A DNA stretch of 41,685 nucleotides from IMG/VR virus record IMGVR_UViG_3300025875_000053, positions 1 through 41,685 of that record, one strand, 5' to 3'. A program made the translations under genes and the position numbers. Below the pieces are notes generated by a model, which searched no databases, was not told the DNA's origin, and saw only the letters and a program-made list of their open reading frames with translations. This DNA is from a virus. Its lineage: Duplodnaviria > Caudoviricetes. Each line of letters starts with the position of its first letter. Position 1 is the first letter of the stretch. This document shows positions 1-30,119 of this stretch, piece by piece.

Positions 1-66
1 GCGGCGAGTGTTACGGCCGGTCCGGACGGAGCCGCAGTCTCGTCCGGGCCGACCTTCTCCACTGTC
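1..66 (-). ncRNA. Candidate small RNA A, continuing across the junction to the hairpin at 41513-41548
   Basis: Near-consensus promoter, no convincing ORF, internal hairpin, terminal stem-loop; 5' end GACAGTGGAGAAGGTC resembles candidate B. Confidence 0.4.
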
Positions 67-99
67 TAAGAACTTACTACCTTCTTAGTCCCTTGTCAA
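66..99 (-). promoter_or_regulatory. Housekeeping-sigma promoter with operator half-sites
   Basis: Minus strand TTGACA(99-94)-N17-TAAGTT(76-71); CTAAG half-sites in the spacer and just downstream. Confidence 0.75.
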
Positions 100-452
100 G
101 GGACGTCGCGCGGGCTCGCTGCCGTGATGATCTGCGCGAGCCACGGAGGGATCACGTCGATCTGATCGAGGAAGAGCTTCCCTTCGAGATTCGACAAGAT
201 CCCGTGTTCGTTGCGCTGCCGGACGTAGAGCGTGACGAAGGCCGGCGCTTCCTGATCCTCCGGCGCTCCCGGACCGGTCTGCCACGTCGAGCGCACGGTT
301 ACGCGGTTCACGAGGTACCGCGTCACGCGATCCGGGTACGGCGGATGCCGGCGCACGATCCGCACATCATCGGCCGGGCACTGCGCGGAGAGCGTCACCT
401 CGTACGAGAGCGTCCGCGTCGCCGGGCTCCACGCTGTCTTCGGTCCGTCCAT
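96..452 (-). CDS. Hypothetical protein, 118 aa
   Basis: RBS GAGGAGG before ATG; protein-like composition. Confidence 0.75.
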   Translation of the reverse strand: MDGPKTAWSPATRTLSYEVTLSAQCPADDVRIVRRHPPYPDRVTRYLVNRVTVRSTWQTGPGAPEDQEAPAFVTLYVRQRNEHGILSNLEGKLFLDQIDVIPPWLAQIITAASPRDVP

Positions 453-472
453 CGTTCCTCCTCAGAAACGAA

Positions 473-501
473 GCCGGCCGCCGGGATCTCCGGCGGCCGG
501 C
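473..501. terminator. Stem-loop terminator
   Basis: 12-bp perfect inverted repeat GCCGGCCGCCGG/CCGGCGGCCGGC between genes. Confidence 0.6.
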
Positions 502-508
502 GTTGCTG

Positions 509-943
509 TCAGGCGAAGCAGTCCGGGCAGAGGATGCGCGCGCGAGCCGGAGCGGTACGGTGCCACTCGTTCGAGCACTGCTTCGTGATCGGCTCCCACT
601 CGTCGCTGCCGACGATCCGGAAGATCGAGCGGAACGCGGAGAGATCGAGGATCCCAACTGTCAAGTCACGGCCGAAGCCTTCGTACGTGACAGTCTTCAT
701 GTCCGCGTCAACGCGCTTCACGAGGAACCAACGTCCGTCCTTGAACCGCTCGATCGTGTCCCACATCTTCGGAGCCTTCCGCTTCGCGTTCTCCGCGAGC
801 GCCTCCCCGTGCTCCTTCGCGATCGCCGCGTGGTACTCCTTCGCGACTCGCTCGCAGTCTGCCGTGGAGCAGTCCGAGAGCGCGATCCCGTGGAGTTCGA
901 GCCACGCTTCGATCTGCTTCGCGCTGTCCGGGTTGATCGCCAT
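509..943 (-). CDS. Hypothetical protein, 144 aa, C-terminal CPDC motif
   Basis: RBS GGAAGGA; preceded by operator/promoter at 989-1010. Confidence 0.8.
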   Translation of the reverse strand: MAINPDSAKQIEAWLELHGIALSDCSTADCERVAKEYHAAIAKEHGEALAENAKRKAPKMWDTIERFKDGRWFLVKRVDADMKTVTYEGFGRDLTVGILDLSAFRSIFRIVGSDEWEPITKQCSNEWHRTAPARARILCPDCFA

Positions 944-988
944 GATCTAGGTCCTTCCGCTTCCCGCCGGTCTCTCCGGCGATGAGTA

Positions 989-1010
989 AAGCTTACCACG
1001 AACTTAGTAA
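989..1010 (-). promoter_or_regulatory. Repeated operator plus extended -10 promoter
   Basis: Minus strand TTACTAAGTTCGTGGTAAGCTT (TG-n-TAAGCT); identical 22-mer at 7172 and 8322. Confidence 0.8.
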
Positions 1011-1053
1011 CTATGGGAAGGCCGGGGACCGAAATCCCCGGCCGGCTTCCGGA

Positions 1054-1323
1054 TCAGAATCGACGGGACGTCCGGCGGAGCGCCTGAATCTTCGTCGTCG
1101 CGTTCCGCTCCCGGATCATCTCGGCAGGCTGCGAAGGCTGCGCGTCCGGTCCGCGACGTCCCATCCGGTGAGTGATCCACGCGGCCGGCGTGTACGTCGG
1201 CGCTCCGTGATCCGCGATCATCTCGCGCCGCAACTTCGGGGAGTGGCACTGCTCCTGCGCGCCGTTCATGATGTCTTGGAGCGTCCCGACTGCTTCGCGC
1301 TTCTCGTTCCTCGTCATCGTCAT
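1054..1323 (-). CDS. Hypothetical protein, about 89 aa, probably leaderless
   Basis: ATG lies 6 nt after -10 TAGACT; ORF track gives 1054..1329. Confidence 0.7.
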   Translation of the reverse strand: MTMTRNEKREAVGTLQDIMNGAQEQCHSPKLRREMIADHGAPTYTPAAWITHRMGRRGPDAQPSQPAEMIRERNATTKIQALRRTSRRF

Positions 1324-1329
1324 ATCCAT

Positions 1330-1358
1330 AGTCTACTAAGAACTTAGTAAGTCCACAA
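1330..1358 (-). promoter_or_regulatory. Promoter containing a perfect palindromic operator
   Basis: TTGTGG-N17-TAGACT; TACTAAG-AA-CTTAGTA at 1334-1349. Confidence 0.75.
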
Positions 1359-1384
1359 GTCCCTACGTGTGAGGAATCCCACCC

Positions 1385-1414
1385 TTGACAGACTTACTAA
1401 GAACCGGGTAAGTT
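1385..1414 (+). promoter_or_regulatory. Promoter with operator half-site, driving candidate small RNA B
   Basis: TTGACA-N18-TAAGTT with TTACTAAGAAC in the spacer. Confidence 0.7.
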
Positions 1415-1417
1415 AAG

Positions 1418-1493
1418 GACAGTGGGAAAGGTCTGCGATCACCGCGCTCCGGGCAAACGGAAACCCGGCCGCGCGATGCGACCGGGTTCCGGT
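1418..1493 (+). ncRNA. Candidate small RNA B
   Basis: Follows the promoter, starts GACAGTGGGAAAGGTC, ends in hairpin AACCCGG...CCGGGTT; opposite strand to flanking genes. Confidence 0.4.
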
Positions 1494-2006
1494 TCAGAGA
1501 CAGGCGATGAGCGCCGGGACGAACACGCCTAGCGCGATATGCCACGACTGATCGAGAGCCCATCCTCCCGTGCCGAGAGACGGGTTGTCTCCGACGAGTT
1601 CCGGCGCTCCTCCCCATCCGTCCTCGTCGTGTGCCACGAGGCGGACGTTCGCGCGGGGAACGCCGAGACGGAGGAAGTTCTCCTTGCCGGGGAACATGCG
1701 CGCGATCCGGAACATGATCCCGAACTCCCGCCGGTCTGCGAGGTAATGCGTCACGCCGGAGAACAGGAGAGCCGCCATGCCGGCGAACGTGTTCACCTCC
1801 GCTCCGGTCACCGCGAGCACGGCCGCGAGGAACACGGCCTGCGTGATGACGTACGTCGCGACGTGGAACAGGCAGGCTCGCCGGCCTTCGTTCCCGGCCT
1901 TCCCCTTGTGCGCCGCCTGATGATCGGTTTGGATCCAGTAGTCTCCGACGTGATGCGCCGCGTAGAGCGCGAGCCCGATTCCTGCGAACGTTCCGATATC
2001 TGCCAT
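1494..2006 (-). CDS. DUF3307-like membrane protein
   Basis: Motifs AHHVGDYWIQTDHQA, THYLADRR, LDQSWH; ATG 6 nt after TAAGCT (leaderless). Confidence 0.8.
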   Translation of the reverse strand: MADIGTFAGIGLALYAAHHVGDYWIQTDHQAAHKGKAGNEGRRACLFHVATYVITQAVFLAAVLAVTGAEVNTFAGMAALLFSGVTHYLADRREFGIMFRIARMFPGKENFLRLGVPRANVRLVAHDEDGWGGAPELVGDNPSLGTGGWALDQSWHIALGVFVPALIACL

Positions 2007-2031
2007 GCATGAAGCTTACTACAAACACACT

Positions 2032-2065
2032 AAGCCGGGCTGTCGTGTAGCTGACAGCCCGGCTT
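2032..2065. terminator. Stem-loop terminator
   Basis: 13-bp inverted repeat AAGCCGGGCTGTC/GACAGCCCGGCTT. Confidence 0.6.
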
Positions 2066-2077
2066 GTGTTCTGCGTC

Positions 2078-2557
2078 TCAGCGAATGTTCACGTTCTGCG
2101 AGATCGAGATCCCGCCGAAGACGAACCGCTTCACGAGGAGGAGCGCGATCACGACGACGACGAGTCCGCCGAAGACGAATCCCCACGGGATCGCGGCGGC
2201 AGCGGTGAACGCGGCTGTGAGCGCGTTCAGCACGAAGACAGCGAGGATGGACAGAACGGCGAGCGTCGCGCCGACGAGAGCGCAACCCTTCGCCCATCCC
2301 GGCATCGGTTCCGGGAGCGGCTTCGCGAGCGCGATCTTCACGCCGTACCCTCCGCCTGCGCGCGAGTGGAACTGTGCGAGCGCGGAAGCGGAGGCGACGT
2401 ACCCGCGCCGCGAGAGCCGATGCAACTCGCGGAGCGTCGCCTTCTTCGTGCGACGGCGGATGAGGTGAGAGCCGACCGGCTTCGGCATCACGAGCGTCTG
2501 ATCCGGCCGGCGAACCACCTCCGCCGAACGCTTGTGTTCGAGTTCCGGGACGTACAT
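2078..2557 (-). CDS. Membrane protein with two C-terminal TM helices, possibly Spd-like
   Basis: MYVPELEHK..., TAATG coupling to upstream gene, two long hydrophobic stretches. Confidence 0.7.
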   Translation of the reverse strand: MYVPELEHKRSAEVVRRPDQTLVMPKPVGSHLIRRRTKKATLRELHRLSRRGYVASASALAQFHSRAGGGYGVKIALAKPLPEPMPGWAKGCALVGATLAVLSILAVFVLNALTAAFTAAAAIPWGFVFGGLVVVVIALLLVKRFVFGGISISQNVNIR

Positions 2558-3138
2558 TAGATCACTCCCAACGAGACGAGAACGGACAGTACGAAGACGA
2601 CGATGACGAGGTGACCGAAGCGGACGTTCCACAAGGACAGCTTCACGCGACGCTTGTTCCGGCGGTTGCGCATCCGGATCGCGCTGTCTCGCGTGATGCG
2701 GCGCGGGTTCCCCTTGTTCTTCTTCTCGTTGTAAACCGGGAAGAGAAGCCGGATGAAGAACGTCTCGATCGCGCGGAGGAGCCACTTCTTCTTCGGAGCG
2801 GGAAGCCGCAGGACACAGACCGGATCGAGATCAGACCACGCGGCCGAAGGCTTCGGGCGGCCGGCGCGCGTCTTCCATCGGCCGCCGCCTTCCGTGTGCT
2901 CCTTGTGCCGATCCTTGAACGAGACCGTCTCTCCGACGTACGCGAAGTGACGTCCGCTCGTGAAGAGGACGAAGAGACCGATCCACCACGGGAACCCGAA
3001 CGCAGCGTTCACGATGCACGCGAACGCAGCGCCGATCGGGAATGCCCACCACGGAGTATCGATCTTCGCGTGAAGCAGTCCGAGAAGGCTCGCCGGCTTC
3101 CGCGTCCGGTAGACGTAGACTCCGCCTCCGGCTCTTAC
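2557..3138 (-). CDS. Membrane-anchored GIY-YIG-like nuclease, start uncertain
   Basis: GGGVYVY...FAYVGET...RHKEH...IETFFIRLLFPVYN with TM segments; no canonical start near 3138. Confidence 0.6.
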   Translation of the reverse strand, partial: VRAGGGVYVYRTRKPASLLGLLHAKIDTPWWAFPIGAAFACIVNAAFGFPWWIGLFVLFTSGRHFAYVGETVSFKDRHKEHTEGGGRWKTRAGRPKPSAAWSDLDPVCVLRLPAPKKKWLLRAIETFFIRLLFPVYNEKKNKGNPRRITRDSAIRMRNRRNKRRVKLSLWNVRFGHLVIVVFVLSVLVSLGVI

Positions 3139-3323
3139 GGCTTCCCCTTCCGGTTTCCCCGCGCTCCGCTCGTTGCGTGATACCGGTCGCAGAACGCGCA
3201 GCGGTACACCTTGCGCGAGTTCGCCTTCGTGCTCGCGCGGAGCCGACCGATCTCCGCCTTCGCGTCGTCGCGTGACGTGTAGATCACTTTCCCGGTTGCT
3301 AGGCATCGTTCCCTCTCGAACAT
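3135..3323 (-). CDS. Small Zn-binding phage protein, 62 aa
   Basis: C..GK..Y.S and YRCxxCxxYH pattern; RBS GAGGAAGG. Confidence 0.75.
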   Translation of the reverse strand: MFERERCLATGKVIYTSRDDAKAEIGRLRASTKANSRKVYRCAFCDRYHATSGARGNRKGKP

Positions 3324-3358
3324 CGGATGAGCCTTCCTCTTCGGTTTTGATGAGGATG

Positions 3359-3379
3359 ACGTTACCACGAACTTAGTAA
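3359..3379 (-). promoter_or_regulatory. Repeated operator plus extended -10
   Basis: Minus strand TTACTAAGTTCGTGGTAACGT. Confidence 0.75.
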
Positions 3380-3883
3380 CTAGGCTAGTAGCCTGATCTC
3401 TTCGAGCGGTACGCCGTTCAGCGGACGTCCTCCTTGCTCGAAGAGGACATCGAGGCAGCGTTCCGGCAGGAAGGCGAGCACGCGTCCGCGTCCCAACTCC
3501 GGATGCCGAAGCCACTCGATGATGCTGCGTCCGGGCACGATGTCATGCCGGCCGCCGGTCCCCTTCCGGATCGGCGTGGACGTTCCGAAGGCAACCTTGC
3601 CGGCCTTCGTCAACTGTCCGCCACGGATGATCCCTACCGTTTTCCTACCGCTCGCCTTCCGTACCTTCCGTTTGATCCACCTCTTCACGAGGCGCTTCGG
3701 CCCGGAACGCACGAGGCGACGCGTGAACCCGGCAGTCTTGCGGAGCCGGCGCGCGGCCTTCTTCGCCTGCCGCCGCGCGACACGCTTTCCGATGCGCGCG
3801 AACACCTTCGGCATCCGCCGCGCCTTCCGCTTGATCTTGCGCGCCTTCCGCTTGATCCACCTCTTCGCCTGCCGCTTATCCAT
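3380..3883 (-). CDS. Very basic K/R-rich protein with C-terminal Tudor/SH3-like domain
   Basis: Repeated KRWIKRK; C-terminal LRHPELGRGRVL...LDVLFEQGG resembles the PcrA/UvrD C-terminal pattern. Confidence 0.65.
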   Translation of the reverse strand: MDKRQAKRWIKRKARKIKRKARRMPKVFARIGKRVARRQAKKAARRLRKTAGFTRRLVRSGPKRLVKRWIKRKVRKASGRKTVGIIRGGQLTKAGKVAFGTSTPIRKGTGGRHDIVPGRSIIEWLRHPELGRGRVLAFLPERCLDVLFEQGGRPLNGVPLEEIRLLA

Positions 3884-3942
3884 GAAATCAGGGTACGCCG
3901 ATTAGGGTTGTTTTACTAGGTTCATGGTGAGATCATAGGGAG

Positions 3943-5889
3943 ATGAAGAGGACACACATCGTACCGCTAGCCTCGTCGCGCTGCGACGGCTTCGCGTGCC
4001 GATCCTGTCCCCGGCCGTGGCGGTTCTTCGTGACCGGCATGGAGCTTTGGGGGATGGGCGACAACGCGACGTTCTTCCACGACGCAACGGAAGACTACCG
4101 CCGGAAGCCGGTTGAAACGCTGTCCCGCGCGAGGTGGCGACGGGTTGCGTGGAGGTGGGGAGTTGCCGGCGTTCCGACGCTCCTCGTCTCGACATGGGCA
4201 GTCGCGCGCGCAACCGCGTACGCGTGGACGCTCTTCGACGCGGACGCTCCCGGTTGGTCCCGTCTCCCGTGGGGATGGTTCTTGTTCTGCTACGTCGCTG
4301 CCGGCGGGATCGCGGGGATCACGTACGGCGGAACGTCGGTCGCTGCGTGGTGGACGGTTCGCGAAGTGCGGAAGACGTACATCTATCCGGCGGCCGATGT
4401 GCTCGCGCGCGTGACTGGCGTACGCCTGCGGCGGCGCGACAAACTCGCCGCGATCGAACTCCCCGAAGGCTTCGGGCAGGAGATCGAGGACGGTACGGAG
4501 CCGGAGCCGGTCCGCGTCTACATTCCCGAAGTCGTTCTTGACGACGCGATGAAGAAGCGGATCGCGAACAACGTCGGCGCGCGGATCGGTCTCCCGGAGC
4601 CGATCGCGAAGTGGACGGAGAGCGGCGTACCGCAGAGGTACGTGGATCTCTATCCGCAGGCGCTCCCGCCGAAGGCTGTCAAGATCGAAGACCTTCTCGA
4701 AGAGTTGCTCGCAGGCGACATCGATCATCCTCTCGTGGGAGTGATGACGGGTGGCCGGATCTCCCGGATGGACTTCAAGAACGACAGTCCTCACTCTCTC
4801 GGTTCGGCCGGCAGCGGCGCGGGGAAGAGCACGCTCTACAAACTCATCGCAATGCAGCGGCTCCGTCACGGCGGATACGCGATCATCCTTGACTTCAAGA
4901 AGTGGAGTCACCTCCGATGGGCGGGACGTCTGCCGGCCGGACGCGTCCGCATCGAGGACGAGGTTGCCAGGATCTCCGACGTTCTCGCGGCCGTGCTCGA
5001 TGAACTCATCTGGCGTAAGTCCTTCAACCTCGAAGACGAAAAGAAGTTGGACGAACTCCCGACGCTCGACGTCTTCGTTGAGGAGATCAATACGCTTCTC
5101 CCGCTCCTCGTGGACTACTGGACAGCGTTCACGGCGGAGCAGAAGGTACGCGCACGCATCCGCGTCCGGAAGGCGAAGGAGGAGATCAAGGACAGCGGAG
5201 CCGCGCGCGACGAGGTTCCGGATCACCTTCTCGCAGAACTCGAAGAGGCGGAGGAGGCGCTCGTTCAGGCGCTCTCGCTGCCGAAGAAGTCGCCGGCCGT
5301 TCAGGCGATCCGCTACGGCGTGAACCTAGGCCGCGAGTTCCGGATCCACTTCCATTTCATCGGACAGTCCATCGACGCGGCAGCGGCCGGAGGACGGAAC
5401 ACGCGCGAGAGTTTCCGGACGCGTCTCCTCGCGCGGTGGGACGCGAAGACGTGGAAGATGCTCGCGGACGGAATCCCGTTCGTCGCGTGTCCGTCCGGGG
5501 ACGTAGGCATTTGGGCACACGTCCACGGAGGGGAGTACGAGATCGTCCGCGTCCCGTACGTCCCGGACGCGTACGCGGTGGAGTACGTCCTCGGAGGAGC
5601 GCGTCCGTCCCTGCCCATGTTCCACGGAGATCCGGTCCCGACGATCGAGGCGGAGCCGGCGGCGCGGGAACTCGCGCGGACGATGCCGCTCTCGGAGATC
5701 GTCGCGATCCTGCCGTTGAAGGCGGACGGCGACCGGATGACGATCAAGGCGCTCCGGCTCGCTGCCGGCCGACCGGGTTTCCCGGAGCCGGACGGCGAGC
5801 CGGAGCCGGGGAAGGCGGCGCTCTTCTACCCGGACGAGGTGATCGCGTGGTTCCGTGATCGAGAGCGGCTCCCCGCCATCGGCTCCTAG
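3943..5889 (+). CDS. FtsK/SpoIIIE-family DNA translocase, TraB-like
   Basis: N-terminal TM helices, Walker A GSGAGKS, Walker B VFVEE, GREFRIHFHFIGQ, C-terminal HTH-like segment (GFPEP...LFYPDEVIAWF). Confidence 0.8.
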   Translation: MKRTHIVPLASSRCDGFACRSCPRPWRFFVTGMELWGMGDNATFFHDATEDYRRKPVETLSRARWRRVAWRWGVAGVPTLLVSTWAVARATAYAWTLFDADAPGWSRLPWGWFLFCYVAAGGIAGITYGGTSVAAWWTVREVRKTYIYPAADVLARVTGVRLRRRDKLAAIELPEGFGQEIEDGTEPEPVRVYIPEVVLDDAMKKRIANNVGARIGLPEPIAKWTESGVPQRYVDLYPQALPPKAVKIEDLLEELLAGDIDHPLVGVMTGGRISRMDFKNDSPHSLGSAGSGAGKSTLYKLIAMQRLRHGGYAIILDFKKWSHLRWAGRLPAGRVRIEDEVARISDVLAAVLDELIWRKSFNLEDEKKLDELPTLDVFVEEINTLLPLLVDYWTAFTAEQKVRARIRVRKAKEEIKDSGAARDEVPDHLLAELEEAEEALVQALSLPKKSPAVQAIRYGVNLGREFRIHFHFIGQSIDAAAAGGRNTRESFRTRLLARWDAKTWKMLADGIPFVACPSGDVGIWAHVHGGEYEIVRVPYVPDAYAVEYVLGGARPSLPMFHGDPVPTIEAEPAARELARTMPLSEIVAILPLKADGDRMTIKALRLAAGRPGFPEPDGEPEPGKAALFYPDEVIAWFRDRERLPAIGS

Positions 5890-5902
5890 GAGCAGGCACG
5901 GA

Positions 5903-5933
5903 AACGGCCCGGAGAGCGTCTCTCCGGGCCGTT
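5903..5933. terminator. Terminator between convergent traB-like and spd-like units
   Basis: 14-bp perfect inverted repeat AACGGCCCGGAGAG/CTCTCCGGGCCGTT. Confidence 0.7.
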
Positions 5934-6010
5934 CGCTTACTCAGAACTCAGGAGGTAGGGTGGCGACTCGACGGCCGTTATCCTGCGGATACGGGGTCTC
6001 GTGAGGTACC

Positions 6011-6310
6011 TCAGGCCATCAACTCCCCGCGCTCCTTCCGCCTCTTCAAGGCGTACGCGGCGCTCGCCATAGCGGCGCGAGCCGGCGTGTTGTGGATCGC
6101 GCAGCACTCCGGCCCCTGCGGATCGAGCCGGCCGGAGCACGGGCAGAACGCCGGGTTGCACGCCTTCGGCTTGAATGTGCGGCCGTCGCTCATCACCACG
6201 GGTTCGAGGCAGCGGCAGGGGTACGGCTCATCGACTGGCGTTCCCGCGATCAACCACGGGCCGAACCCGGCCGCCTGCGTGGCGGCCGGGCTCTTCTGCT
6301 CTTCGGTCAC
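6011..6310 (-). CDS. Cys-rich hypothetical protein, 99 aa
   Basis: GTGA overlap with upstream gene, RBS AAGGAG; CRC, CNPAFCPC and CC motifs. Confidence 0.65.
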   Translation of the reverse strand: MTEEQKSPAATQAAGFGPWLIAGTPVDEPYPCRCLEPVVMSDGRTFKPKACNPAFCPCSGRLDPQGPECCAIHNTPARAAMASAAYALKRRKERGELMA

Positions 6311-7140
6311 TTGCTCTCCTTCATCGCGGCGCGCACGCGGGCAACGTGAGCGGCCGACTGTCCGACGATCTCCGAGACGCTCTCGTCCGTGGTGGACGCG
6401 TCCTGAGTCATGATCTTGATCGCGCGCTTCGTCCGCTGCCACGGCTTCGCGGTTAGTCCGTCCACGAGGAGGAGTACGTCCTCGTCCGTCCGTCCGTCCG
6501 CGTGGAGACGAACCGCCTTCTCGACGTCCCACGAGGCGACGCGTCCGGCGGACGGCTTCGCCTCCGTCTTCGGTGCGTCCGTCTTCGTCTCCGGCCGGGG
6601 AGCCGGCTTCGGCTTCGGCGCGGCGGCCGGCGCGGCGAGCGGGACGATCGGGAGCGTGTGGCGGATGCCGGCGTGAACCCAACGGGGAGCAGGCGCGGGG
6701 AGCGGCTTCACGAACGGAACGATCGGGAGGAGCGCGGGAGCAACCGTCTTCGTCACGATCTGCGGCGCGGCGGCCGGAACCTCGATCTCCTCCGCCTGCT
6801 TCGCGGTGGACTCGATGAGGATCGCAGCGAGGAAGCAGATCGGCATGGACGCGGCGATGAGGAGCGGATCCATCTTGATCGCGTTCTCCGCGTCCGCGTT
6901 GAAGAGGAGCGAGTACGCAGCGCCGACGAGGAGAGCAACCGCTCCAACCTTCTTGCGGCCGGTCTGCATTGCGCGGATCCCGACGTAAAGGAGACCGTCG
7001 ATTCCGATCGGGTAGACGAGAGAGACGGCAAGCGGGTTCGTCTCGTTGACAACCGAAACGATGTGCTGCGCGCTCGCAGCGAAGGAGGCGAGCGTAACCG
7101 CTCCGGCGGCCGTCGGGCTCTTCAAGAAGTTGACGTTCAT
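6307..7140 (-). CDS. SpdA/DUF2637-like membrane protein with C-terminal HTH
   Basis: SAQHI...YPIGIDGL motif, about 4 TM helices, Pro/Ala linker, C-terminal helix-turn-helix-like segment. Confidence 0.7.
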   Translation of the reverse strand: MNVNFLKSPTAAGAVTLASFAASAQHIVSVVNETNPLAVSLVYPIGIDGLLYVGIRAMQTGRKKVGAVALLVGAAYSLLFNADAENAIKMDPLLIAASMPICFLAAILIESTAKQAEEIEVPAAAPQIVTKTVAPALLPIVPFVKPLPAPAPRWVHAGIRHTLPIVPLAAPAAAPKPKPAPRPETKTDAPKTEAKPSAGRVASWDVEKAVRLHADGRTDEDVLLLVDGLTAKPWQRTKRAIKIMTQDASTTDESVSEIVGQSAAHVARVRAAMKESK

Positions 7141-7171
7141 TCGATGAGTCTTTCCTCGTTTGGTATGAGGA

Positions 7172-7202
7172 AAGCTTACCACGAACTTAGTAAGGACGAC
7201 AA
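7172..7202 (-). promoter_or_regulatory. Repeated operator/promoter
   Basis: TTGTCG-N18-TAAGCT including TTACTAAGTTCGTGGTAAGCTT. Confidence 0.8.
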
Positions 7203-7248
7203 GCGGCCGGACGAATCGAGTTCGTCCGGCTCGCCTGCGGTTCGTCCG

Positions 7249-7587
7249 TCAGTCCACACGTACCGGGAACTCGACGGACTCGTCCGCGTCGATCTGAACG
7301 ATCAGGCGCGAGATCGTCTCGACGTGTGCCAGGAAAACGAGAGTCTCCGTGGCGGCAACGATGGAGTCAAGCCGGTCGTACGCGCGAACGACGATGAAGC
7401 CTTCCCCGATGTGACGCATGATCGGGGAGAGACGCGCGTTCATCTTCGCGATCTCCGGCGTCACGTCCTCGTGCGTCTCGATGCGGATCGGATCCGTCAC
7501 GATGACGTTCCCGGAGTGGAGGCGGATGGAGTCACGCTCGACGTTGTGTCGCATGTCAGAAGATCCAATCGTGAACGGCGTTGTCAT
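7249..7587 (-). CDS. Hypothetical protein, 112 aa
   Basis: Last gene of a leftward operon, followed by hairpin 7206-7230. Confidence 0.65.
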   Translation of the reverse strand: MTTPFTIGSSDMRHNVERDSIRLHSGNVIVTDPIRIETHEDVTPEIAKMNARLSPIMRHIGEGFIVVRAYDRLDSIVAATETLVFLAHVETISRLIVQIDADESVEFPVRVD

Positions 7588-8119
7588 GGGAGAGTCCGCA
7601 GTCTTCCCCGGCTCCGTTGCGCATCACCATGCGGACGCAGGCCATGCCGGAATATCCACCCTCGAACGGGTGACGCTCGATCCCGTCGAAGGTTGTCGTG
7701 TTGTGCGTCTCGCGGATCGTCTTGTGATCCACGGTCCCGACTGCCGGCAGCGGCGCGGCCGGACGGAGCACGCGGCCGACGAACTGTCCGGACCGGTAGC
7801 GGTACCGGCCGCGCGTGACGTTCGGGAGTTCCTGCGTCTTCTCCGCCTCGTCCTCTTCGCCTTCGAGCGGCATACGCGGGTTGTCCCCGTGGAAGTTCAC
7901 GAGCGAGTCGAAGAGCGTCGCGGCATCGGAGCCGAGACCCTTCGAGAGCGAGACGAGACGCGTGATGAGATCCTCCGCGATCGTCTGCCGATCGATGTTC
8001 TCATCGTCCAACTTCACGGACGAGTCGTGAGCGAGCGCCGCGAGGAGATTCCCGATCTCCTGCCGTGCCTGATCCCGCGCCTCCGCGAGATCCCGCTTCG
8101 TGTGTTGGAAGTAGCTCAC
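7556..8119 (-). CDS. Hypothetical protein, 187 aa
   Basis: GTGA overlap with upstream gene; MSYFQHTKRDL... Confidence 0.65.
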   Translation of the reverse strand: MSYFQHTKRDLAEARDQARQEIGNLLAALAHDSSVKLDDENIDRQTIAEDLITRLVSLSKGLGSDAATLFDSLVNFHGDNPRMPLEGEEDEAEKTQELPNVTRGRYRYRSGQFVGRVLRPAAPLPAVGTVDHKTIRETHNTTTFDGIERHPFEGGYSGMACVRMVMRNGAGEDCGLSHDNAVHDWIF

Positions 8120-8316
8120 TGCTTCTTCGCCTCCTTGACGTTCTGTCGGTTGGTCTCGTCCGCGCTCATGATGCAAAGTCCGATCCACATCACGACGCAG
8201 GCGAGCCCGGCGCTCGTGATGAACCAAACCTCCGTGACGAAACCGATGGTTCCGAGAACGGCGGAGAGGATTCCCACGATCATCCGGGCTCGTTCGATGC
8301 GCTGCTTCTTCGTCAT
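8116..8316 (-). CDS. Small two-TM membrane protein, leaderless
   Basis: Two hydrophobic helices; ATG 6 nt after TAAGCT. Confidence 0.75.
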   Translation of the reverse strand: MTKKQRIERARMIVGILSAVLGTIGFVTEVWFITSAGLACVVMWIGLCIMSADETNRQNVKEAKKQ

Positions 8317-8321
8317 GCATG

Positions 8322-8343
8322 AAGCTTACCACGAACTTAGTAA
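8322..8343 (-). promoter_or_regulatory. Repeated operator plus extended -10
   Basis: Exact copy of the 22-mer at 989 and 7172. Confidence 0.8.
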
Positions 8344-8901
8344 CTACGTCGAGAGGGATCCTGCTTCTGTCTTGCCATCAAAGATCAGGCTCCACACGAG
8401 TTCGATCGCGTTGTGAACGAGCACGGCGAGCGCGACGACGAGGATCGCGAGCGGAGGCAGGATGGAGAGCAGGAACGCGACCGTACCGAGCATCACCTTC
8501 GGGAACGTCCGGAGCCATCCCGGCCGGCGCTTCTTCGAGAAGAGCGCCGCCCATCGAACGCCGGTCCACATGAGGAGCCGCCGGTACGCCGGGACGCGGA
8601 GTTCGCGCAGCGCGCGGAGGAACAGTCCGTCCGCGTCCACGCTCGACACGCGGCCGGCTTCGAGGCAGTGAGTGAGCAGGAAATCGTGGAGGATCGCTGC
8701 CTTCGTGAAGGAACCGAAGCGCGGGATCAGCCATACGGCGACGCGGGGAACCGTGGCGAAGTCCGTCACGTAATCCTTCGGGACGATGAACTCGTCCACG
8801 TCTCCGACGTACCGAACCTCCTCTTCGAGGCGGAACAGGGTCGGAGAGATCGGCTCCACGAGCACGCGTCCGCCGCGTGTGTTCTTCGGTGCGAACGGCA
8901 A
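8344..8901 (-). CDS. DUF1353-like protein with C-terminal TM segments
   Basis: VPKDYVTDFATVP, AAILHDFL, ADGLF, LMWTGVR motifs; TTG start after GAAGGGAG (alternative start 8916). Confidence 0.8.
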   Translation of the reverse strand: MPFAPKNTRGGRVLVEPISPTLFRLEEEVRYVGDVDEFIVPKDYVTDFATVPRVAVWLIPRFGSFTKAAILHDFLLTHCLEAGRVSSVDADGLFLRALRELRVPAYRRLLMWTGVRWAALFSKKRRPGWLRTFPKVMLGTVAFLLSILPPLAILVVALAVLVHNAIELVWSLIFDGKTEAGSLST

Positions 8902-8969
8902 GAGAACTCCCTTCAACGGCGAGAGCCGCGTCCCCGATCGGTGGACGCGGCTCCTCGCTTGCGGATGGA

Positions 8970-9326
8970 TCAGGCTTCGACGGTCTCCGAGACGGTCTCG
9001 TCGCCGGCCGTCTCGCCGGTCTCGACGGTCTCGGCGGAGTCGCCGGCCGGGTTCTGCTCCTTGCGCTCCCGCGCGATCTTCTTCTTCACGACGACGGCGA
9101 CCGTCTCGGCGTCACCCTGCACGGAGACGACGGTCCGCTTCTCGTCCTCGGTGCCGATCGCCTCCACCTCCACGATCCGGGCGGAGAAGTCGCCGGCCGC
9201 GTCCTTGATCGCGGCGAGCGCGCTCTTCGAGGCGAAGTTCATCACGGCGAAGTCACCGTAGGCGAAGGCGACGTACTCGTCCGACTCGACGGCGGAAACG
9301 GTGACGAGGTACTTGGAGTTCGACAT
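8970..9326 (-). CDS. Hypothetical protein, 118 aa
   Basis: RBS GAGGAGG; MSNSKYLVTV... Confidence 0.75.
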   Translation of the reverse strand: MSNSKYLVTVSAVESDEYVAFAYGDFAVMNFASKSALAAIKDAAGDFSARIVEVEAIGTEDEKRTVVSVQGDAETVAVVVKKKIARERKEQNPAGDSAETVETGETAGDETVSETVEA

Positions 9327-9423
9327 TCTGTGTGCCTCCTCAGGCATCGGCGTTACGTTCATCGTAACACTCATAAGGCGGACCGGAAACCGGGGTACCC
9401 GGTCCGCCGTGATGAATGTTCGA

Positions 9424-10083
9424 TCAGTTGATGCGGAAGCCTTCGGCGCGAGCGGTAGTCCACCACGCGCGAGCCTTCGCCATCGCCTCCGGCGACTCAT
9501 CGAGCAACTCGAAGTGCCACTTCGCCTTCGGCCGGTCCCCGGCCTTGTCGATGTCCTGCTTCGCCTTCTCCTTCCACGCCGCGAGTTCCGCCGTGAAAGC
9601 GTCGAAGGTCTTCCCCTTCCGCATGTCTGCGGCGGAGTAGCCGGCCCGGATGCGGCCGACACCGAAGGGACGCGGGCTCGCGGAGAGCTTGTTCAGGCTC
9701 CCGATGATGTTCGCCCAACTCACCTTGAAGTTCGGGACGAGGAACGGGAAGTCCTCGATCGTCATGATCTTGTCCTCGAACTCGTCCTCCGTCCCCTGCT
9801 TCTTGGAACGGTACTCGTATTCGAGTTTGCCTCCGTCGAGGATGACGAGATCGATCGTCCACTCCTCGCGGAACTCCGGGAGGTTGTACTCCCGGCGGAG
9901 GTACTCGGAGACCTTCGCCTCCTTGTCGAAGGAGCGCGGAACGAGGATGATCGTCCGGCCTTCGAGCGCGTCGATCGGCGGACGCGGAACGAACACGCCG
10001 CTCGACTTGATGTCTTCCTTCGTCGCGAAGGGATCGTTCTCGTCCACGTTCACGGCGAACGGATCGTCCATGACATCACTCAC
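9424..10083 (-). CDS. Hypothetical protein, 219 aa, possibly ssDNA-binding or recombination accessory
   Basis: Lies downstream of the exonuclease; function inferred only from position. Confidence 0.7.
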   Translation of the reverse strand: MSDVMDDPFAVNVDENDPFATKEDIKSSGVFVPRPPIDALEGRTIILVPRSFDKEAKVSEYLRREYNLPEFREEWTIDLVILDGGKLEYEYRSKKQGTEDEFEDKIMTIEDFPFLVPNFKVSWANIIGSLNKLSASPRPFGVGRIRAGYSAADMRKGKTFDAFTAELAAWKEKAKQDIDKAGDRPKAKWHFELLDESPEAMAKARAWWTTARAEGFRIN

Positions 10084-10189
10084 TGTGTTACCCCTTTACT
10101 GAGTTGCAAGGTCTGTCCCTGCGTGCCCGGCGGCGCTACTTCGATGCTGTCCCGCCGGGACCGTCCGTCTTTCCGGACCGTCATGGAGT

Positions 10190-10351
10190 CTAGCGCGAGT
10201 TGCTCTGTCCGCGTCCCGTGTTGCCGCTCGTGGTGGCGGCGCTGCCGTTGCCCGTGTTCGAGGAACCCTGCGACGCCTGCGAGTTCTCGGAGTTCATCCG
10301 GTCCCACTCCTGCTGGTCGGCGCGAGTCCAACGGTTTCCGCTGCCTGCCAT
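10190..10351 (-). CDS. Small S/G/N/Q-rich peptide, 53 aa (not in ORF track)
   Basis: MAGSGNRWTRADQQEWDRMNSENSQ...; purine-rich RBS; first ORF after promoter 10402-10430. Confidence 0.55.
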   Translation of the reverse strand: MAGSGNRWTRADQQEWDRMNSENSQASQGSSNTGNGSAATTSGNTGRGQSNSR

Positions 10352-10401
10352 CCTGTTTCCTTCCCTCCCGGCTCCGGCTTCCCCGTTGCCTTCTGAGTAA
10401 A

Positions 10402-10430
10402 ACTCTAGTCGGTTCTTAGTGAGTCCGCAA
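10402..10430 (-). promoter_or_regulatory. Promoter with operator half-site
   Basis: TTGCGG-N17-TAGAGT with ACTAAGAAC in the spacer. Confidence 0.6.
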
Positions 10431-10433
10431 CCC

Positions 10434-11534
10434 TCAAACCGGAGAAGTTTCGAGGCGCTTCTTCGCGGCGAGCGCCTCCTCCGCGAGGATCACGTTCCAC
10501 ACGCCGGCCTTCTTGCATTCCGCCACGAGCGCGGAGCCTTCGGCCGGCGTGGAGACGGCAGCGAAGCGCGCGGCGTACTGCTCCGTCGCCGTGACTGCCG
10601 GAGCCTCACGGAGCCACGCACGCGGGTTCTTCGCCTGCTTCCCTCCGCGCCTGTCGAGGACGATCTCACGCGCGAGTTCAGCGGTACGGAGACCGGCCTT
10701 GATGTCCACCTCGTACACGTCCACGGCCGGCGTACCGGAGGGATGCTCGCGCGGCATCCAAAGGACGAAGGCGATATCGAGACTCACCTTCGGCATGTCC
10801 ACCCAACGGCCGGCGCGCGCGTTGATCGGATCGTTCGCGGACTCCCACATAGCTTCCGCGTTCGCGTAGCAGGCGAGTTGCGCTGCGATTTCGAGCCACG
10901 TCCAAAACTTCTTCTGCGTCTTCAAGTCTCCGATGTGGAGACCGCGCGTCCGCAGATCCACGAGCACGGCATCGAGCGTTCCCACGGCATCGAAGCGCGG
11001 GATGACGACGCGCCTTTCCGCGAGACCGGGCACGCGTTCGAGTTCGTTCCGCGCGAGACTCGCCTTGAACAAGGACAAGTGCTGCCGCGCGAACGCGTCC
11101 GGCATGGCGGCCGGCGTGGAGAGGTGATCCGCCTCCACGAGTTCATGCCGCGCGTTGCCGAACTTCGAGCCTTCGTTCCCGCCGGAGAGATCCTTACAGC
11201 GGTTCACGAACTCTTCGATCTCCGCGCGCCGAACGGAGTAGTCCTTCCCCTGAACCGCGACGAGAGTCATCCGCAGATCCCGGAGCACACGATCCGCGTC
11301 CACGTGAACCGCGATCATGATTTGTTCGATCTCCCACACGCGCAAGGAGAACTGATCCGTGATCGCCTTGACGAGGTTCGTGACTCGCTGCCATCCTCCC
11401 GTCTTGTGCGAGCCGTCGAGATTCGGCAGGCGGTACCGGCCGACACTGATGATCCGTTTCCGCTTCGCCATCAAGGCGACTCCCGCGAGATCATCCCCGG
11501 TTGCGAACGGATCGTTCATCAGTCCTGCGCTCAT
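10434..11534 (-). CDS. PD-(D/E)XK exonuclease (RecB/Cas4-like)
   Basis: GNARHELVE, VGTLDAV, IGDLKT, QLACYA motifs. Confidence 0.85.
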   Translation of the reverse strand: MSAGLMNDPFATGDDLAGVALMAKRKRIISVGRYRLPNLDGSHKTGGWQRVTNLVKAITDQFSLRVWEIEQIMIAVHVDADRVLRDLRMTLVAVQGKDYSVRRAEIEEFVNRCKDLSGGNEGSKFGNARHELVEADHLSTPAAMPDAFARQHLSLFKASLARNELERVPGLAERRVVIPRFDAVGTLDAVLVDLRTRGLHIGDLKTQKKFWTWLEIAAQLACYANAEAMWESANDPINARAGRWVDMPKVSLDIAFVLWMPREHPSGTPAVDVYEVDIKAGLRTAELAREIVLDRRGGKQAKNPRAWLREAPAVTATEQYAARFAAVSTPAEGSALVAECKKAGVWNVILAEEALAAKKRLETSPV

Positions 11535-13291
11535 CGCTTCACCTTCCTCACGAGCGGATCGATCCGCTCCGTTGCCTCTACCTTACCGATCCGGTCTGAC
11601 ACTTTTCCCGCGTCTCCGTCCACGTCCACGCGGAGCGAGCGCGCCTTATTGACCAACTTCGGGGAGGGTGCCTTCCTCCGCCACGAAGCGCGCTTGTTCG
11701 AGAGATCGAGCCCGGTATCCGCGCCGAGATCGATCGCGAGGTTCTCCGCCTCATCGAGCGCTTCATCGAGCGTGTGTGGACGCGTCGAGTGGAGCGCTAC
11801 CGCCTTCGGCTTACAGCCATCACAGAGACGATCGCGGCGGACGGGATGAGACTCGTTCGTGTGGACTCCGAGAGAGCAGACGAAGAACGACGCGGAGGGA
11901 TGCTTCGTCGCCCAAAACACGGAGTACGATCCCGGCTTCGGGTACTCCATGAGGAAGACGTACGCGTCCGGTCCGGCCGGGATCACGTGATTGCCGGCCG
12001 ACGTCGTGAGCCACACCTTCGAGCGCGACGCGCGGCCGATCGGATCGAACTCCTTCGCGATCGTCTCGCCACGGTAGAACGCGGGTTCGTCCTCCTCTAC
12101 GCCTTCGCCTGCGTCAAACTCCTCTTCGAGTTCCGCGAGCGTCTTCCCGCTCCGGACCTTCTCGGGATCGAGATCCTTCTCCGAGAGATCCGCCATGCTC
12201 CGGAGATCGTGGATCCCGTTCGCTCCCACGACGTCAAGGAGTAGACAGTCCTGCTCCTCGTGCGGCCGCGACTTGTCCACGCGGAGTCCACGGCCGACGA
12301 TCTGAACGTAGAGCCGCTTCGACTTCGTGGGACGTCCGATGAGGATCGCGTCCACTTCGGGATCGTCGTACCCGACAGTGAGGATCATGCAATTCACGAC
12401 GACGGTTCCGCGCTTGTGGCGCGCGAGGATCGCGTCCCGTTCCGCCTGCGGCAATCCGCCGTGGATCACCTCCGCCGGGATGCCGGCCGCTTCGATGGCG
12501 GCAGCGAAGACGTACGAGGATGCGACCGTGGGGAAGAACGCGAGCGTCTTCCGATCGGAGCAGTGTTCCACGATCGCCTGCGCGACGAGTTCCGGCGCGA
12601 GCGAGTCCGCGAGCGCTTCGCCTAGTTCCCCGTCGCGGTAGTCCGCCTTCGTTGCCTTGACGCTCGCGAGGTTCAAGTCCGGAACCGTGATCGCGATCCC
12701 GCGCGGAGGGATGAGGAACTTCCGCGCGATCATCCATGTCAAAGGCAGGGAGTACGTGATCTCCTGCCACACGTTCGCGATCTTCCCGTCCGACCGGTAC
12801 GGAGTCGCGGTGACTCCTACGGCCTTCGCGGCGAACTCTCCGTCCGCTCGCGGGACAAAGCATCCGAAGTAATCGAGGATCTTCATGTACGACGGAGCCG
12901 CCGCAAGATCGCACTCGTCCACGATGACGCGGCAGACGTCCCGCATTTGCGCGAGCCGCTTCGGGTTCTTCAACGTCATCACGGAAGCCACGACGACATC
13001 GGCCGTCGTCTCGTTGTACCGCGACCCCTTCACGACTCCGATGACGAGATCCGGCGCGATCGCGCGCAGCGCCTTGACGGTCTGCCACGCGAGTTCGTCC
13101 GTGTGGACGAGGATCACGACGCGCTTGTCCGGGTACCGCAGAAGGAGCCGGCGCGACATTTCCGAGAACGTGATCGTCTTCCCGGATCCCGTGGGAAGGA
13201 CGATCATCGCGCGGAGGTTGAAGGGATCCGCGTCGAGCCACGTCTCCGTGCGCTCGATCGCGGTCTCCTGATACGGATAGAGGGTAACCAT
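11531..13291 (-). CDS. SF2 DEAD/DEAH-like helicase
   Basis: LYPYQ, PTGSGKT, IVDEC, TATP, QIVGRGLR. Confidence 0.92.
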   Translation of the reverse strand: MVTLYPYQETAIERTETWLDADPFNLRAMIVLPTGSGKTITFSEMSRRLLLRYPDKRVVILVHTDELAWQTVKALRAIAPDLVIGVVKGSRYNETTADVVVASVMTLKNPKRLAQMRDVCRVIVDECDLAAAPSYMKILDYFGCFVPRADGEFAAKAVGVTATPYRSDGKIANVWQEITYSLPLTWMIARKFLIPPRGIAITVPDLNLASVKATKADYRDGELGEALADSLAPELVAQAIVEHCSDRKTLAFFPTVASSYVFAAAIEAAGIPAEVIHGGLPQAERDAILARHKRGTVVVNCMILTVGYDDPEVDAILIGRPTKSKRLYVQIVGRGLRVDKSRPHEEQDCLLLDVVGANGIHDLRSMADLSEKDLDPEKVRSGKTLAELEEEFDAGEGVEEDEPAFYRGETIAKEFDPIGRASRSKVWLTTSAGNHVIPAGPDAYVFLMEYPKPGSYSVFWATKHPSASFFVCSLGVHTNESHPVRRDRLCDGCKPKAVALHSTRPHTLDEALDEAENLAIDLGADTGLDLSNKRASWRRKAPSPKLVNKARSLRVDVDGDAGKVSDRIGKVEATERIDPLVRKVKR

Positions 13292-13761
13292 CACTCGTCC
13301 CACGGCGGCTTGTCTTCGAGGATCTCCACGCCTCCGAAGAGATCGGAGAGCGCCTCGATCGCGTCATCGAGTTCGGACGTGTGCGTACCGCGACGGACCT
13401 TCACCTCTCCCTTCGGCTCGCGCGGGAACGGGCCAGAGACGGGAGACATCGAGTCCTTCCGCATCGAGACATGCTGCTTCTCCCCGATGCGCTCCGTACC
13501 CATCACTTCCCACCACTCGCCGTTCGGGACGCGAACGAACCATCCCGCCGGGATGAGATCCCACGGCCGCGTGAGCACGAACCCGTGGGGAGCGTTCGGC
13601 CGCCGCGCCGCCGGGAGGAGCGCTTCGAGCGCGTCCACGGCAGCGGACAGCGCGACGACGCTCTCCGGCTCCGGCTCTTCGCCGGTACGCTTCGTGTCTG
13701 CGCGCCACTTCCGGGCAGTCTCGATGACTGCCCGGAGCGCGCTCGCCTGATCGAAGGTCAC
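13291..13761 (-). CDS. Hypothetical protein, 156 aa
   Basis: Translationally coupled on both sides. Confidence 0.75.
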   Translation of the reverse strand: MTFDQASALRAVIETARKWRADTKRTGEEPEPESVVALSAAVDALEALLPAARRPNAPHGFVLTRPWDLIPAGWFVRVPNGEWWEVMGTERIGEKQHVSMRKDSMSPVSGPFPREPKGEVKVRRGTHTSELDDAIEALSDLFGGVEILEDKPPWDE

Positions 13762-13943
13762 TCGTCATCCTCGTTTCGCATGAACGACGGGAGTTCCCCG
13801 TCCGTCTCCGACAGAATGCAGATCGAGCACTTCCCGCCGATGAGCGTCTCCTTCCCCGGCGTACGCTTTCCGCCGAAGTCGTAGCAGTACCAACGGCTCA
13901 TGCCGGCGAACGCGTTCACGCAGAGAGTCTTGATCTCGTCCAT
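13758..13943 (-). CDS. Small Cys-containing protein, 61 aa
   Basis: RBS GGAAGGA; first gene after the leftward promoter. Confidence 0.65.
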   Translation of the reverse strand: MDEIKTLCVNAFAGMSRWYCYDFGGKRTPGKETLIGGKCSICILSETDGELPSFMRNEDDE

Positions 13944-13989
13944 CGGGTGAGTCCTTCCGTCCTGCCGGTACCGTCCGGCTCTGAGTAAG

Positions 13990-14070
13990 ACTCTACCACG
14001 AACTTAGTAAGTCGCGCTACCCGACATGATCGCTTGCCTCCGGGCTCCCCGTAGAGTATCTTCTTAGTAA
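13990..14070. promoter_or_regulatory. Divergent promoter/operator switch region
   Basis: Leftward TTACTAAGTTCGTGGTAGAGT (14010-13990); rightward TTGCCT-N17-TATCTT followed by CTTAGTAA (14063-14070). Confidence 0.7.
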
Positions 14071-14106
14071 GTGTCCGATGTGCGGACGCAGGAGAAAGGG
14101 TGGATC

Positions 14107-14331
14107 ATGGCAACCGCGACCGTCACGGACGATCTGACCACGGGTAAGAAGGACAAGCGCCTCGAAGCCGCGATCACGGCCGGGCTCGATGCGGAGATCA
14201 CGAAGCGCGCCGTCGAGTTGGCCGGCGGCAGGGATCCGAAGATGTTCCGGTCCGCTGCCGCTCGTGACATGCTCGTGCGCGCCGCGATCATCCTCCGCAA
14301 GGAGCGCGCCGCCGCGAGCCGGCAGGCGTAG
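14107..14331 (+). CDS. Ribbon-helix-helix DNA-binding protein (CopG/Arc-like), candidate repressor
   Basis: KRLEAAIT strand, LDAEITKRA helix, RSAAARDML helix; RBS GAAAGGG; alternative GTG at 14071. Confidence 0.6.
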   Translation: MATATVTDDLTTGKKDKRLEAAITAGLDAEITKRAVELAGGRDPKMFRSAAARDMLVRAAIILRKERAAASRQA

Positions 14332-16846: not shown

Positions 16847-16933
16847 GTGTGAGCTGTGTGAGTAGCCTCAGGAAATCTCCTATACGTGTAGTGATTCTGA
16901 GAGTTTTCCTAGGGGTACTCACACAGCTCACAC
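16847..16933. repeat. 87-bp palindromic element 1 (putative origin)
   Basis: 18-bp perfect terminal inverted repeats GTGTGAGCTGTGTGAGTA around an AT-richer core, 20 bp after the primase stop. Confidence 0.8.
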
Positions 16934-27264: not shown

Positions 27265-27270
27265 TCGACT

Positions 27271-27303
27271 CCGGCCGTCCGGTTCCCCGTGCCGGACGGC
27301 CGG
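27271..27303 (+). terminator. Stem-loop after the capsid gene
   Basis: 12-bp inverted repeat CCGGCCGTCCGG/CCGGACGGCCGG. Confidence 0.6.
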
Positions 27304-30032: not shown

Positions 30033-30119
30033 GTGTGAGCTGTGTGAGTACCCCTAGGAAAACTCTCTACGCGTAGGGTTCTATAGGGATTTTCCTGAGG
30101 CTACTCACACAGCTCACAC
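30033..30119. repeat. 87-bp palindromic element 2
   Basis: Same 18-bp terminal inverted repeats as 16847-16933; inner arms in inverted order. Confidence 0.8.

Follow-up and report, generated by a model that had tools for sequence, protein, structure and literature searches.

The virus record IMGVR_UViG_3300025875_000053, whose full 41,685 nt (64% G+C, graded complete) we call the window, is a complete circular siphophage in which a DNA-pump ATPase related to those of Streptomyces linear plasmids stands together with a membrane protein of the DUF2637-like type and a membrane-anchored protein of the GIY-YIG nuclease fold. The gene content, the family, fold and conservation of these proteins, the nuclease-pump fusion seen in two relatives and the failure of our searches to find an integrase are established. 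As to what the cassette does, we tentatively favor the reading that an integrase-free lytic phage uses it to pump replicated DNA into neighboring compartments or touching hyphae of a filamentous actinomycete. The cassette genes and the predicted signals flanking the pump gene are:

3943-5889, plus strand: pRL2-11-family ATPase of the FtsK/TcpA fold, a predicted membrane-anchored double-stranded DNA translocase with a C-terminal helix-turn-helix (HTH)-like domain
6307-7140, minus strand: DUF2637-like (SpdB-type) protein with three predicted transmembrane helices, a Pro/Ala linker and a C-terminal HTH-like region
2557-3306, minus strand: GIY-YIG-fold nuclease with a C-terminal transmembrane anchor and invariant Y, Y, G, R, H, E and N
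3905-3942, plus strand: predicted promoter of the ATPase gene, which resembles the repeated early promoter motif in degenerate form and has a -10-like box immediately ahead of the ATG
5903-5937, no strand: G+C hairpin past the ATPase stop, a predicted bidirectional terminator, the same in relative G001

Pump, nuclease and Spd-like protein

The ATPase gene encodes 648 amino acids (aa), and its start at 3943 is backed by R27 and G32, which are invariant in relatives (the database form has 611 aa). Walker A (AGSGAGKS, about residues 289-296), Walker B (DVFVEE, E380/E381), the GRE motif (G463/R464) and IHFHFIGQ (Q475) are all conserved. As a single sequence the protein gave no FtsK Pfam match; its family profile matched EccC (E 1.8e-9), TcpA (9e-8) and FtsK (1e-4), and its AlphaFold model (mean predicted local distance difference test score 81.7) matched TcpA (E 2e-13) and FtsK (E 2e-12), with HerA-nuclease complexes also among the fold matches. 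Judged by sequence and model, it belongs to the FtsK/SpoIIIE-HerA superfamily, with a RecA-type motor, Walker A and B, an arginine finger and a glutamine sensor. Against its closest relative, the three codon positions differ 90, 65 and 199 times over 648 codons, consistent with purifying selection. A codon-based gene caller found no other plus-strand gene in positions 1-14000, and relatives carry a similar -10 box 5 to 7 nt upstream of the ATPase start.

The initial annotation was therefore right that the left arm holds a genuine FtsK/SpoIIIE-type ATPase as its only plus-strand gene. The N-terminal transmembrane helices that it proposed are supported by the hydrophobicity of 13 other members (1.5-2.4) and by long helices in the model at 62-97 and 110-158, and are poorly marked in the window's own copy; the C-terminal HTH-like segment is a lead, MerR/excisionase-like with an atlas score of 0.84. 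The description of the pump as TraB-type did not survive. Profiles built from the phage ATPases matched pRL2-11 and two homologues on Streptomyces linear plasmids along almost the whole protein, with E values of 1e-68 to 1e-79. The values were 1e-6 to 1e-14 for chromosomal FtsK and EccC and 1e-4 to 1e-7 for pIJ101 Tra, and never better than 0.5 for the TraB proteins of pSVH1, pSG5, pSN22 and pFP11. Two quick trees joined the phage ATPases with pRL2-11 (Shimodaira-Hasegawa-like approximate likelihood ratio test [SH-aLRT] support 98-99), apart from TraB, FtsK and EccC, with deep branches that are long and uncertain; G004, G011 and G013 were left out of both trees, P0084 of the first, and L105 (Walker A not matched), L119 (gene truncated at the contig end), L102, L106 and L112 of the second. 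By these sequence comparisons the ATPase is a member of the pRL2-11 family of Streptomyces linear plasmids and not a TraB of the pSVH1 type, and the broader claim of the initial annotation, that of a plasmid-type translocase outside chromosomal FtsK and EccC, holds.

In PLSDB the ATPase matched 46 records at about 27% identity, 44 of them from Streptomyces, under the annotations pRL2-11 or DUF87. On pRL2 (NC_007927) the pRL2-11 gene follows a DUF2637 gene (pRL2-10) downstream of a divergent GntR gene, and this GntR-spd-tra layout matches the spd-tra arrangement in pSVH1, pSG5, pFP11 and SLP2. Because of the grouping with pRL2-11 and the layout of pRL2, the ATPase looks like a plasmid transfer pump, though not a canonical TraB. 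The family also has members reduced to the ATPase domain (L079:43826-44755, L003:11631-12452, L004:11624-12454 and L135:3437); the first is an annotated hypothetical protein of Dagobah, a cultured S. coelicolor phage, and on two linear plasmids the ATPase-only copy lies directly 3' of the full-length gene. Replication-relaxation or replication-initiation genes adjoin FtsK-like genes on a Streptomyces linear plasmid (L003:8568-9413) and in Bacillus phage BtCS33 (L092:2677-4441).

The nuclease gene was absent from the initial annotation. By sequence its product had no match in the PDB, and Foldseek alone placed the UvrC GIY-YIG domain first at a weak E of 0.6; in VIA-align the top eight matches to the model were all GIY-YIG nucleases, among them I-TevI (Z 9.3, root-mean-square deviation 2.6, 81 residues aligned) and UvrC (Z 8.8). 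In predicted fold, and in a Tyr/Arg/Glu/Asn set that is catalytic in this family, it conforms to a GIY-YIG nuclease. It occurs in 24 of the 35 pump-carrying phage records (14 of 15 in the first set, 10 of 21 further records); the sole first-set genome without it is G013, which has a short, atypical ATPase and which recurred as a 22nd record in the further search. Two relatives carry the nuclease fused behind the C-terminal domain of the pump (L114, 9974-12070; L118, 4620-7094), and its profile found no match in the plasmid and cellular stretches examined. Complex prediction for ATPase residues 185-645 with the nuclease fragment minus its C-terminal anchor returned no answer (score 0.00) and is not used as evidence.

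The third component had been labeled SpdA/DUF2637-like, of which the DUF2637 part stands at a sub-cut-off level and the SpdA part does not. DUF2637 marks SpdB-type proteins such as pRL2-10, which itself scores 22.0 bits against a cut-off of 22.8, and the product of the pFP11 gene preceding tra; homologues or positional equivalents of 6307-7140 exceed the cut-off in 2 of 13 relatives and, in another set, in 7 of 18. The family profile gave E 0.33 for pIJ101 SpdA and no match to the SpdA candidates of pSVH1, SpdA being described as a DNA-binding or stability protein (PMC4447253). The sequence is therefore better called SpdB-type than SpdA, an assignment that is weak on its own. The pump gene was also said to converge on this gene, and it does so with a small cysteine-rich gene standing between the two. 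Neighboring genes, all on the minus strand, are:

6011-6310: 99-aa Cys-rich protein between the Spd-like gene and the ATPase, kept in 5 of 15 genomes compared
2078-2557: 159-aa membrane protein with two transmembrane helices, downstream of the nuclease gene
1494-2006: DUF3307-like/phrog_2470 membrane protein
8344-8901: DUF1353 membrane protein

Several relatives have similar two-helix genes 3' of the nuclease gene, and the DUF3307 and DUF1353 genes are not counted in the module because they are not conserved beside the pump. A 167-aa open reading frame at 3380-3883, extremely rich in Lys and Arg and divergent from the pump, is shared with G001 only (78%).

Distribution of the cassette among phages

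The window ATPase had 84 database matches including itself, many on contigs of 39 to 43 kb. Alone it matched none of 50,697 phage records; a search with a distant member recovered just Dagobah (E 1e-7) and, weakly, FtsK-like genes of Bacillus phages, two scans of metagenome contigs gave no match, and a broader profile recovered 35 viral loci. Record tallies exclude L015 and L121, near-duplicates of L014 and L120. The pump is retained at 30-83% identity and in a fixed position in at least 24 phage records, and the cassette is kept in genomes whose virion modules are unrelated and whose replication modules are of two kinds. A left-arm core of pump, nuclease, helicase, exonuclease and endonuclease VII is joined to these several modules in G002, G005, G006, G007, G009, G012 and G014.

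Among 21 new records, 10 carry the nuclease without an integrase, 9 an integrase (8 tyrosine, 1 serine) without the nuclease, and 2 incomplete records neither; none has both. In the first set PF00589 or PF00239 was found in 0 of 14 records, the G014 contig likewise having neither, and PF00589, PF00239 and PF07508 were found in 0 of 11 near-complete nuclease-bearing virus records. In the tree the nuclease records fall in a single clade (21 rows, SH 98). A second clade (10 rows, SH 100) is mainly integrase-bearing, 8 of its rows having an integrase, and the ninth record with an integrase sits beside Dagobah. The integrase clade has a gene for a protein with multiple transmembrane helices, often DUF2637, just upstream of the pump. 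Two of its records are proviruses, and Actinoplanes missouriensis 431 and Micromonospora sp. A200 have annotated proteins identical to the pumps of these two. Since the pump family also occurs in integrase-bearing phages and proviruses, the pump does not diagnose a plasmid lifestyle. Integrase-bearing phages or proviruses in which a membrane gene lies immediately upstream of the pRL2-11-type pump gene (L134:248-3069, L130:8415-11176, L122-L124, L128, L131 and L132) are candidates for conjugative prophages resembling the integrative and conjugative elements of actinomycetes (AICEs).

Genome layout, mode of life and rival readings

The features of the remaining genome that bear on its mode of life are:

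982-14071, no strand: TTA[C/G]TAA, eight intergenic copies (Markov expectation 0.1), most within a longer early-promoter motif
14071-14331, plus strand: ribbon-helix-helix (RHH)-like protein, candidate repressor of the repeated early promoters (features 0.93, MetJ/RHH sets)
14404-16827, plus strand: P4-type primase-helicase, the replication protein
16847-16933, no strand: copy 1 of an imperfect 87-bp palindrome, lying 3' of the primase gene and a predicted replication origin
30033-30119, no strand: palindrome copy 2, between the tail tube and tail chaperone genes and duplicated there in G001 and G005 too
20307-41457, plus strand: siphovirus virion and lysis module (TerL, portal, capsid, neck, tail, holin)

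The virion module reported by the initial annotation is present, with TerL, portal, capsid, neck, tail terminator, tail tube, tape measure and holin all identified. The left arm has a minus-strand helicase and exonuclease and many small genes, followed by the plus-strand primase-helicase and endonuclease VII; with its small genes behind repeated promoters, this layout is of the lytic type. The nearest cultured terminases are those of Microbacterium and Streptomyces phages (43-50%), the endolysin had no match among phages, and the holin and endonuclease VII alone matched the G830 provirus, weakly. For this uncultured phage family we infer an actinobacterial and filamentous host, likely a soil actinomycete. 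Within the tape measure gene, 31800-32610 holds repeats with a 132-nt period.

We propose that in such a host the ATPase would form a membrane hexamer, as FtsK and TraB do, that the Spd-like protein would form or assist a septal channel, as SpdB2 does for pSVH1, and that by analogy with TraB/SpdB2 this membrane pump and Spd-type channel could move double-stranded DNA across septa or hyphal contacts. The tethered nuclease may cut replicating or concatemeric DNA at the membrane and so provide the substrate of the pump; the integrase-bearing sister clade, with its excised circle, would not need it. The phage would then be mainly virulent or in a transient carrier state and not a stable plasmid. 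PMC4447253 shows that SpdB2 is pore-forming and required for intramycelial spread, and raises the possibility that actinophage homologues help phage DNA to spread. In its broadest form, in which a widespread virulent actinophage family has turned a plasmid conjugation pump into a virion-free system of movement between cells, the tethered or pump-fused nuclease cutting replicating phage DNA and the translocase pushing it through septa or into touching hyphae, we hold the proposal to be rather doubtful.

Several points weigh against the narrower form of the proposal. (i) The N-terminal anchor of the window ATPase is weakly hydrophobic, with 19-residue Kyte-Doolittle peaks of 1.1 and 1.29, against 1.27 elsewhere in the protein; 6307-7140 matched DUF2637 (PF10935) at E=0.018 and 15.4 bits, below the cut-off of 22.8; and its profile gave E 0.78 for pSVH1 SpdB2 and E 0.003 for pIJ101 SpdB. 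(ii) A clustered 8-mer scan for clt found nothing above background, and also missed the known clt in the pSVH1 control. (iii) The mutual exclusion of nuclease and integrase is essentially one evolutionary contrast, because the tree shows two clades. (iv) The RHH-like gene and the eight operator-like repeats fit a repressed, latent state; and since small conjugative Streptomyces plasmids likewise have no ParAB, its absence is compatible with a plasmid. (v) The nuclease clade was found in none of the PLSDB and GTDB isolates searched, which may just reflect a rarely cultured host. (vi) Our literature search, with subscription journals mostly outside it, found no functional test of pRL2-11 and no test of Spd homologues spreading phage DNA.

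The initial annotation had proposed a conjugative phage-plasmid, that is, a circular plasmid with a primase-linked origin and RHH silencing that moves between mycelia by means of the pump; we consider this unlikely. The absence of integrase and ParAB on which it drew was confirmed, as six-frame profile searches of the window matched no tyrosine or serine integrase, ParA, ParB, GntR or protelomerase, and the first of these absences favors a plasmid. So does the assembly: from what is probably the source run, two unitigs (28,344 nt at depth 107 and 13,159 nt at depth 116) together span the circle, agree with it throughout and stop solely at the two palindromes; of the 15 joints shown none was backed by this run, and a second comparison listed no joints. 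The 127-nt terminal repeat at the window ends is probably an assembly overlap. However, lytic phages assemble as circles too, and because contigs drop rare variants, such as a junction, the unitigs are weak evidence against integration. Runs X2-X4 held 5-9% of the window's words, from relatives at about 90% identity, and loose ends at 80% likeness belong to other organisms.

Silencing and replication are likewise compatible with a plasmid phase. The claim that there is no XRE repressor is correct insofar as the sole HTH_3 match, in the gene just before the terminase region, lies below the cut-off (E 7.6e-4), but given the RHH-like gene it is unsafe to say that there is no repressor, and this candidate keeps latency possible. 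The TTA[C/G]TAA sites may be its operators, or merely a conserved strong promoter; the early promoter-like motif has a quasi-palindromic core, and each relative over-represents a motif particular to it. Among PLSDB plasmids the nearest full-length primase (39%) is encoded by one of 98.8 kb from Streptomyces that also has a terminase gene. The linear 98.8-kb Streptomyces "plasmid" L100 (NZ_CP041606), which shares the helicase-HTH-primase layout and also carries a terminase and a tyrosine recombinase, is a probable phage-plasmid, and pZL12 and pSLE1 are precedents (PMC4487206, PMC3583192). Of 11 genomes scanned, 7 have a long palindrome 3' of the gene for the primase or replication protein, with a second copy in three of these (G001, 27182-27273 and 41136-41225; G005, 33188-33318 and 5000-5086, the G005 copies being 95% identical). 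The pair is a candidate duplicated or two-part origin, reminiscent of P4 ori1/crr. As clt the palindromes were rejected, the repeat unit tracking the primase and not the ATPase (G002 and G006 share the repeat with primases 75% and ATPases 40% identical), and as protelomerase sites likewise, PF16684 being found in 0 of 5 records.

Persistence as a plasmid, by contrast, found no support. Among 72,556 plasmids PLSDB holds no close copy (best 27-29%). In GTDB the nuclease clade has one match, a 39-kb contig binned in a Labedaea metagenome-assembled genome, and no isolate; two samples of 401 genomes each gave 6 and 3 matching genomes (two of the 6 are unpublished and enter the count only), of which only that contig scored as phage clade, the rest being far weaker. 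ParA (PF13614) was found in 0 of 30 records, ParB (PF02195) in 0 of 5 and GntR/TraR (PF00392) over its cut-off in 0 of 5, in a search that did not extend to other stability systems. A plasmid lifestyle is thus possible but unsupported.

A second alternative retains the pump and tethered nuclease as a machine for host takeover or exclusion, degrading host or competitor DNA at the membrane with no export of the phage genome. The intact-looking nuclease with its membrane anchor or pump fusion, the HerA-nuclease complexes among the fold matches and the empty clt scan all speak for it. It is nonetheless distinctly unlikely, as the Spd-like gene accompanies the pump in plasmids as well as in both phage clades, the nuclease-free one included, which points to a transfer module. 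Slightly more improbable again is segregation of the SpoIIIE kind, in which the pump would move genomes to branching tips or spore compartments for carriage in dormant spores (pseudolysogeny), without transfer between individuals: the FtsK/SpoIIIE fold, WhiB genes in relatives, the lack of an integrase or ParAB for inheritance and the FtsK/SpoIIIE-like genes of Bacillus phages fit this, but the nearest kin of the pump are plasmid transfer-region genes and not chromosomal FtsK. That the pump is a recently captured plasmid fragment without a phage role, as its standing as the only inverted left-arm gene with its own promoter and terminator might suggest, is highly improbable and largely refuted by its conserved sequence and position and the purifying selection on it.

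Known systems and significance

Phages with a conjugation pump are already known; the new elements are the pRL2-11-type pump, its association, as a partner or by fusion, with a membrane-tethered nuclease of the GIY-YIG fold in a family without integrases, and a sister prophage that may be testable. Our literature search, with subscription journals mostly outside it, found nothing on this phage family or on a nuclease-coupled pump. The closest system is pRL2-10/pRL2-11 of pRL2 and other Streptomyces linear plasmids, with the same ATPase family and an adjacent DUF2637 gene; the window pump differs in that a tailed phage carries it, as an inverted, monocistronic gene; there is no GntR gene, and the nuclease gene is added. 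The TraB/SpdB2 systems of pSVH1, pSG5, pFP11 and SLP2 share a single FtsK-like ATPase and an Spd-type protein, and the N-terminal membrane region and C-terminal HTH-like domain of their ATPase have predicted or candidate counterparts in the window pump. In canonical TraB the C-terminal winged HTH binds 8-bp clt repeats, and Kil-Kor control is exerted by the GntR-type TraR. The window pump, in contrast, falls in a separate clade, with no TraR, no clt found and an extra nuclease. TcpA of pCW3, the best structural match, acts with a type IV-like apparatus and a relaxase, neither of which was seen in the window.

Like the window, pZL12/phiZL12 and pSLE1 join virion genes and a transfer ATPase on one replicon (PMC4487206, PMC3583192), but pSLE1, at 86 kb, has ParA, ParB and two integrases (PMC4487206). 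Its transfer ATPase matched the phage profile at just E 6e-5. The plasmid-phage pFP4 measures about 39 kb, so that small size is probably not new. Spd homologues in phiC31 and VWB and an FtsK gene in Thermobifida phage P1312 are on record (PMC4447253, PMC4569894), and FtsK-like genes are found also in Streptomyces phage Dagobah and in Bacillus phages such as BtCS33. The 309-aa Dagobah protein belongs to the same ATPase family (E 1e-58) but is without the membrane and HTH regions; P1312 and BtCS33, unlike the window, have integrases, and the three-part cassette is described in none of these phages. An AICE combines integrase, Rep and an FtsK-type Tra (PMC3218068); the window is without the integrase, whereas the sister phage clade has integrase and Tra.

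How phages spread within the septate, multinucleoid mycelia of actinomycetes is poorly understood. The whole integrase-free family keeps pump, Spd-like protein and tethered nuclease, and selection for the cassette is therefore strong. As the pump of a sister-clade provirus is identical to that annotated in Actinoplanes missouriensis 431, the pump and Spd part of the proposal may be testable in a cultured strain. The cassette adds a nuclease-coupled variant to the single-protein TraB paradigm and, if DNA does pass across septa or between hyphae by this route, the phage would bypass receptors and surface defenses, and such virion-free movement would be a bacterial counterpart of the movement proteins of plant viruses.

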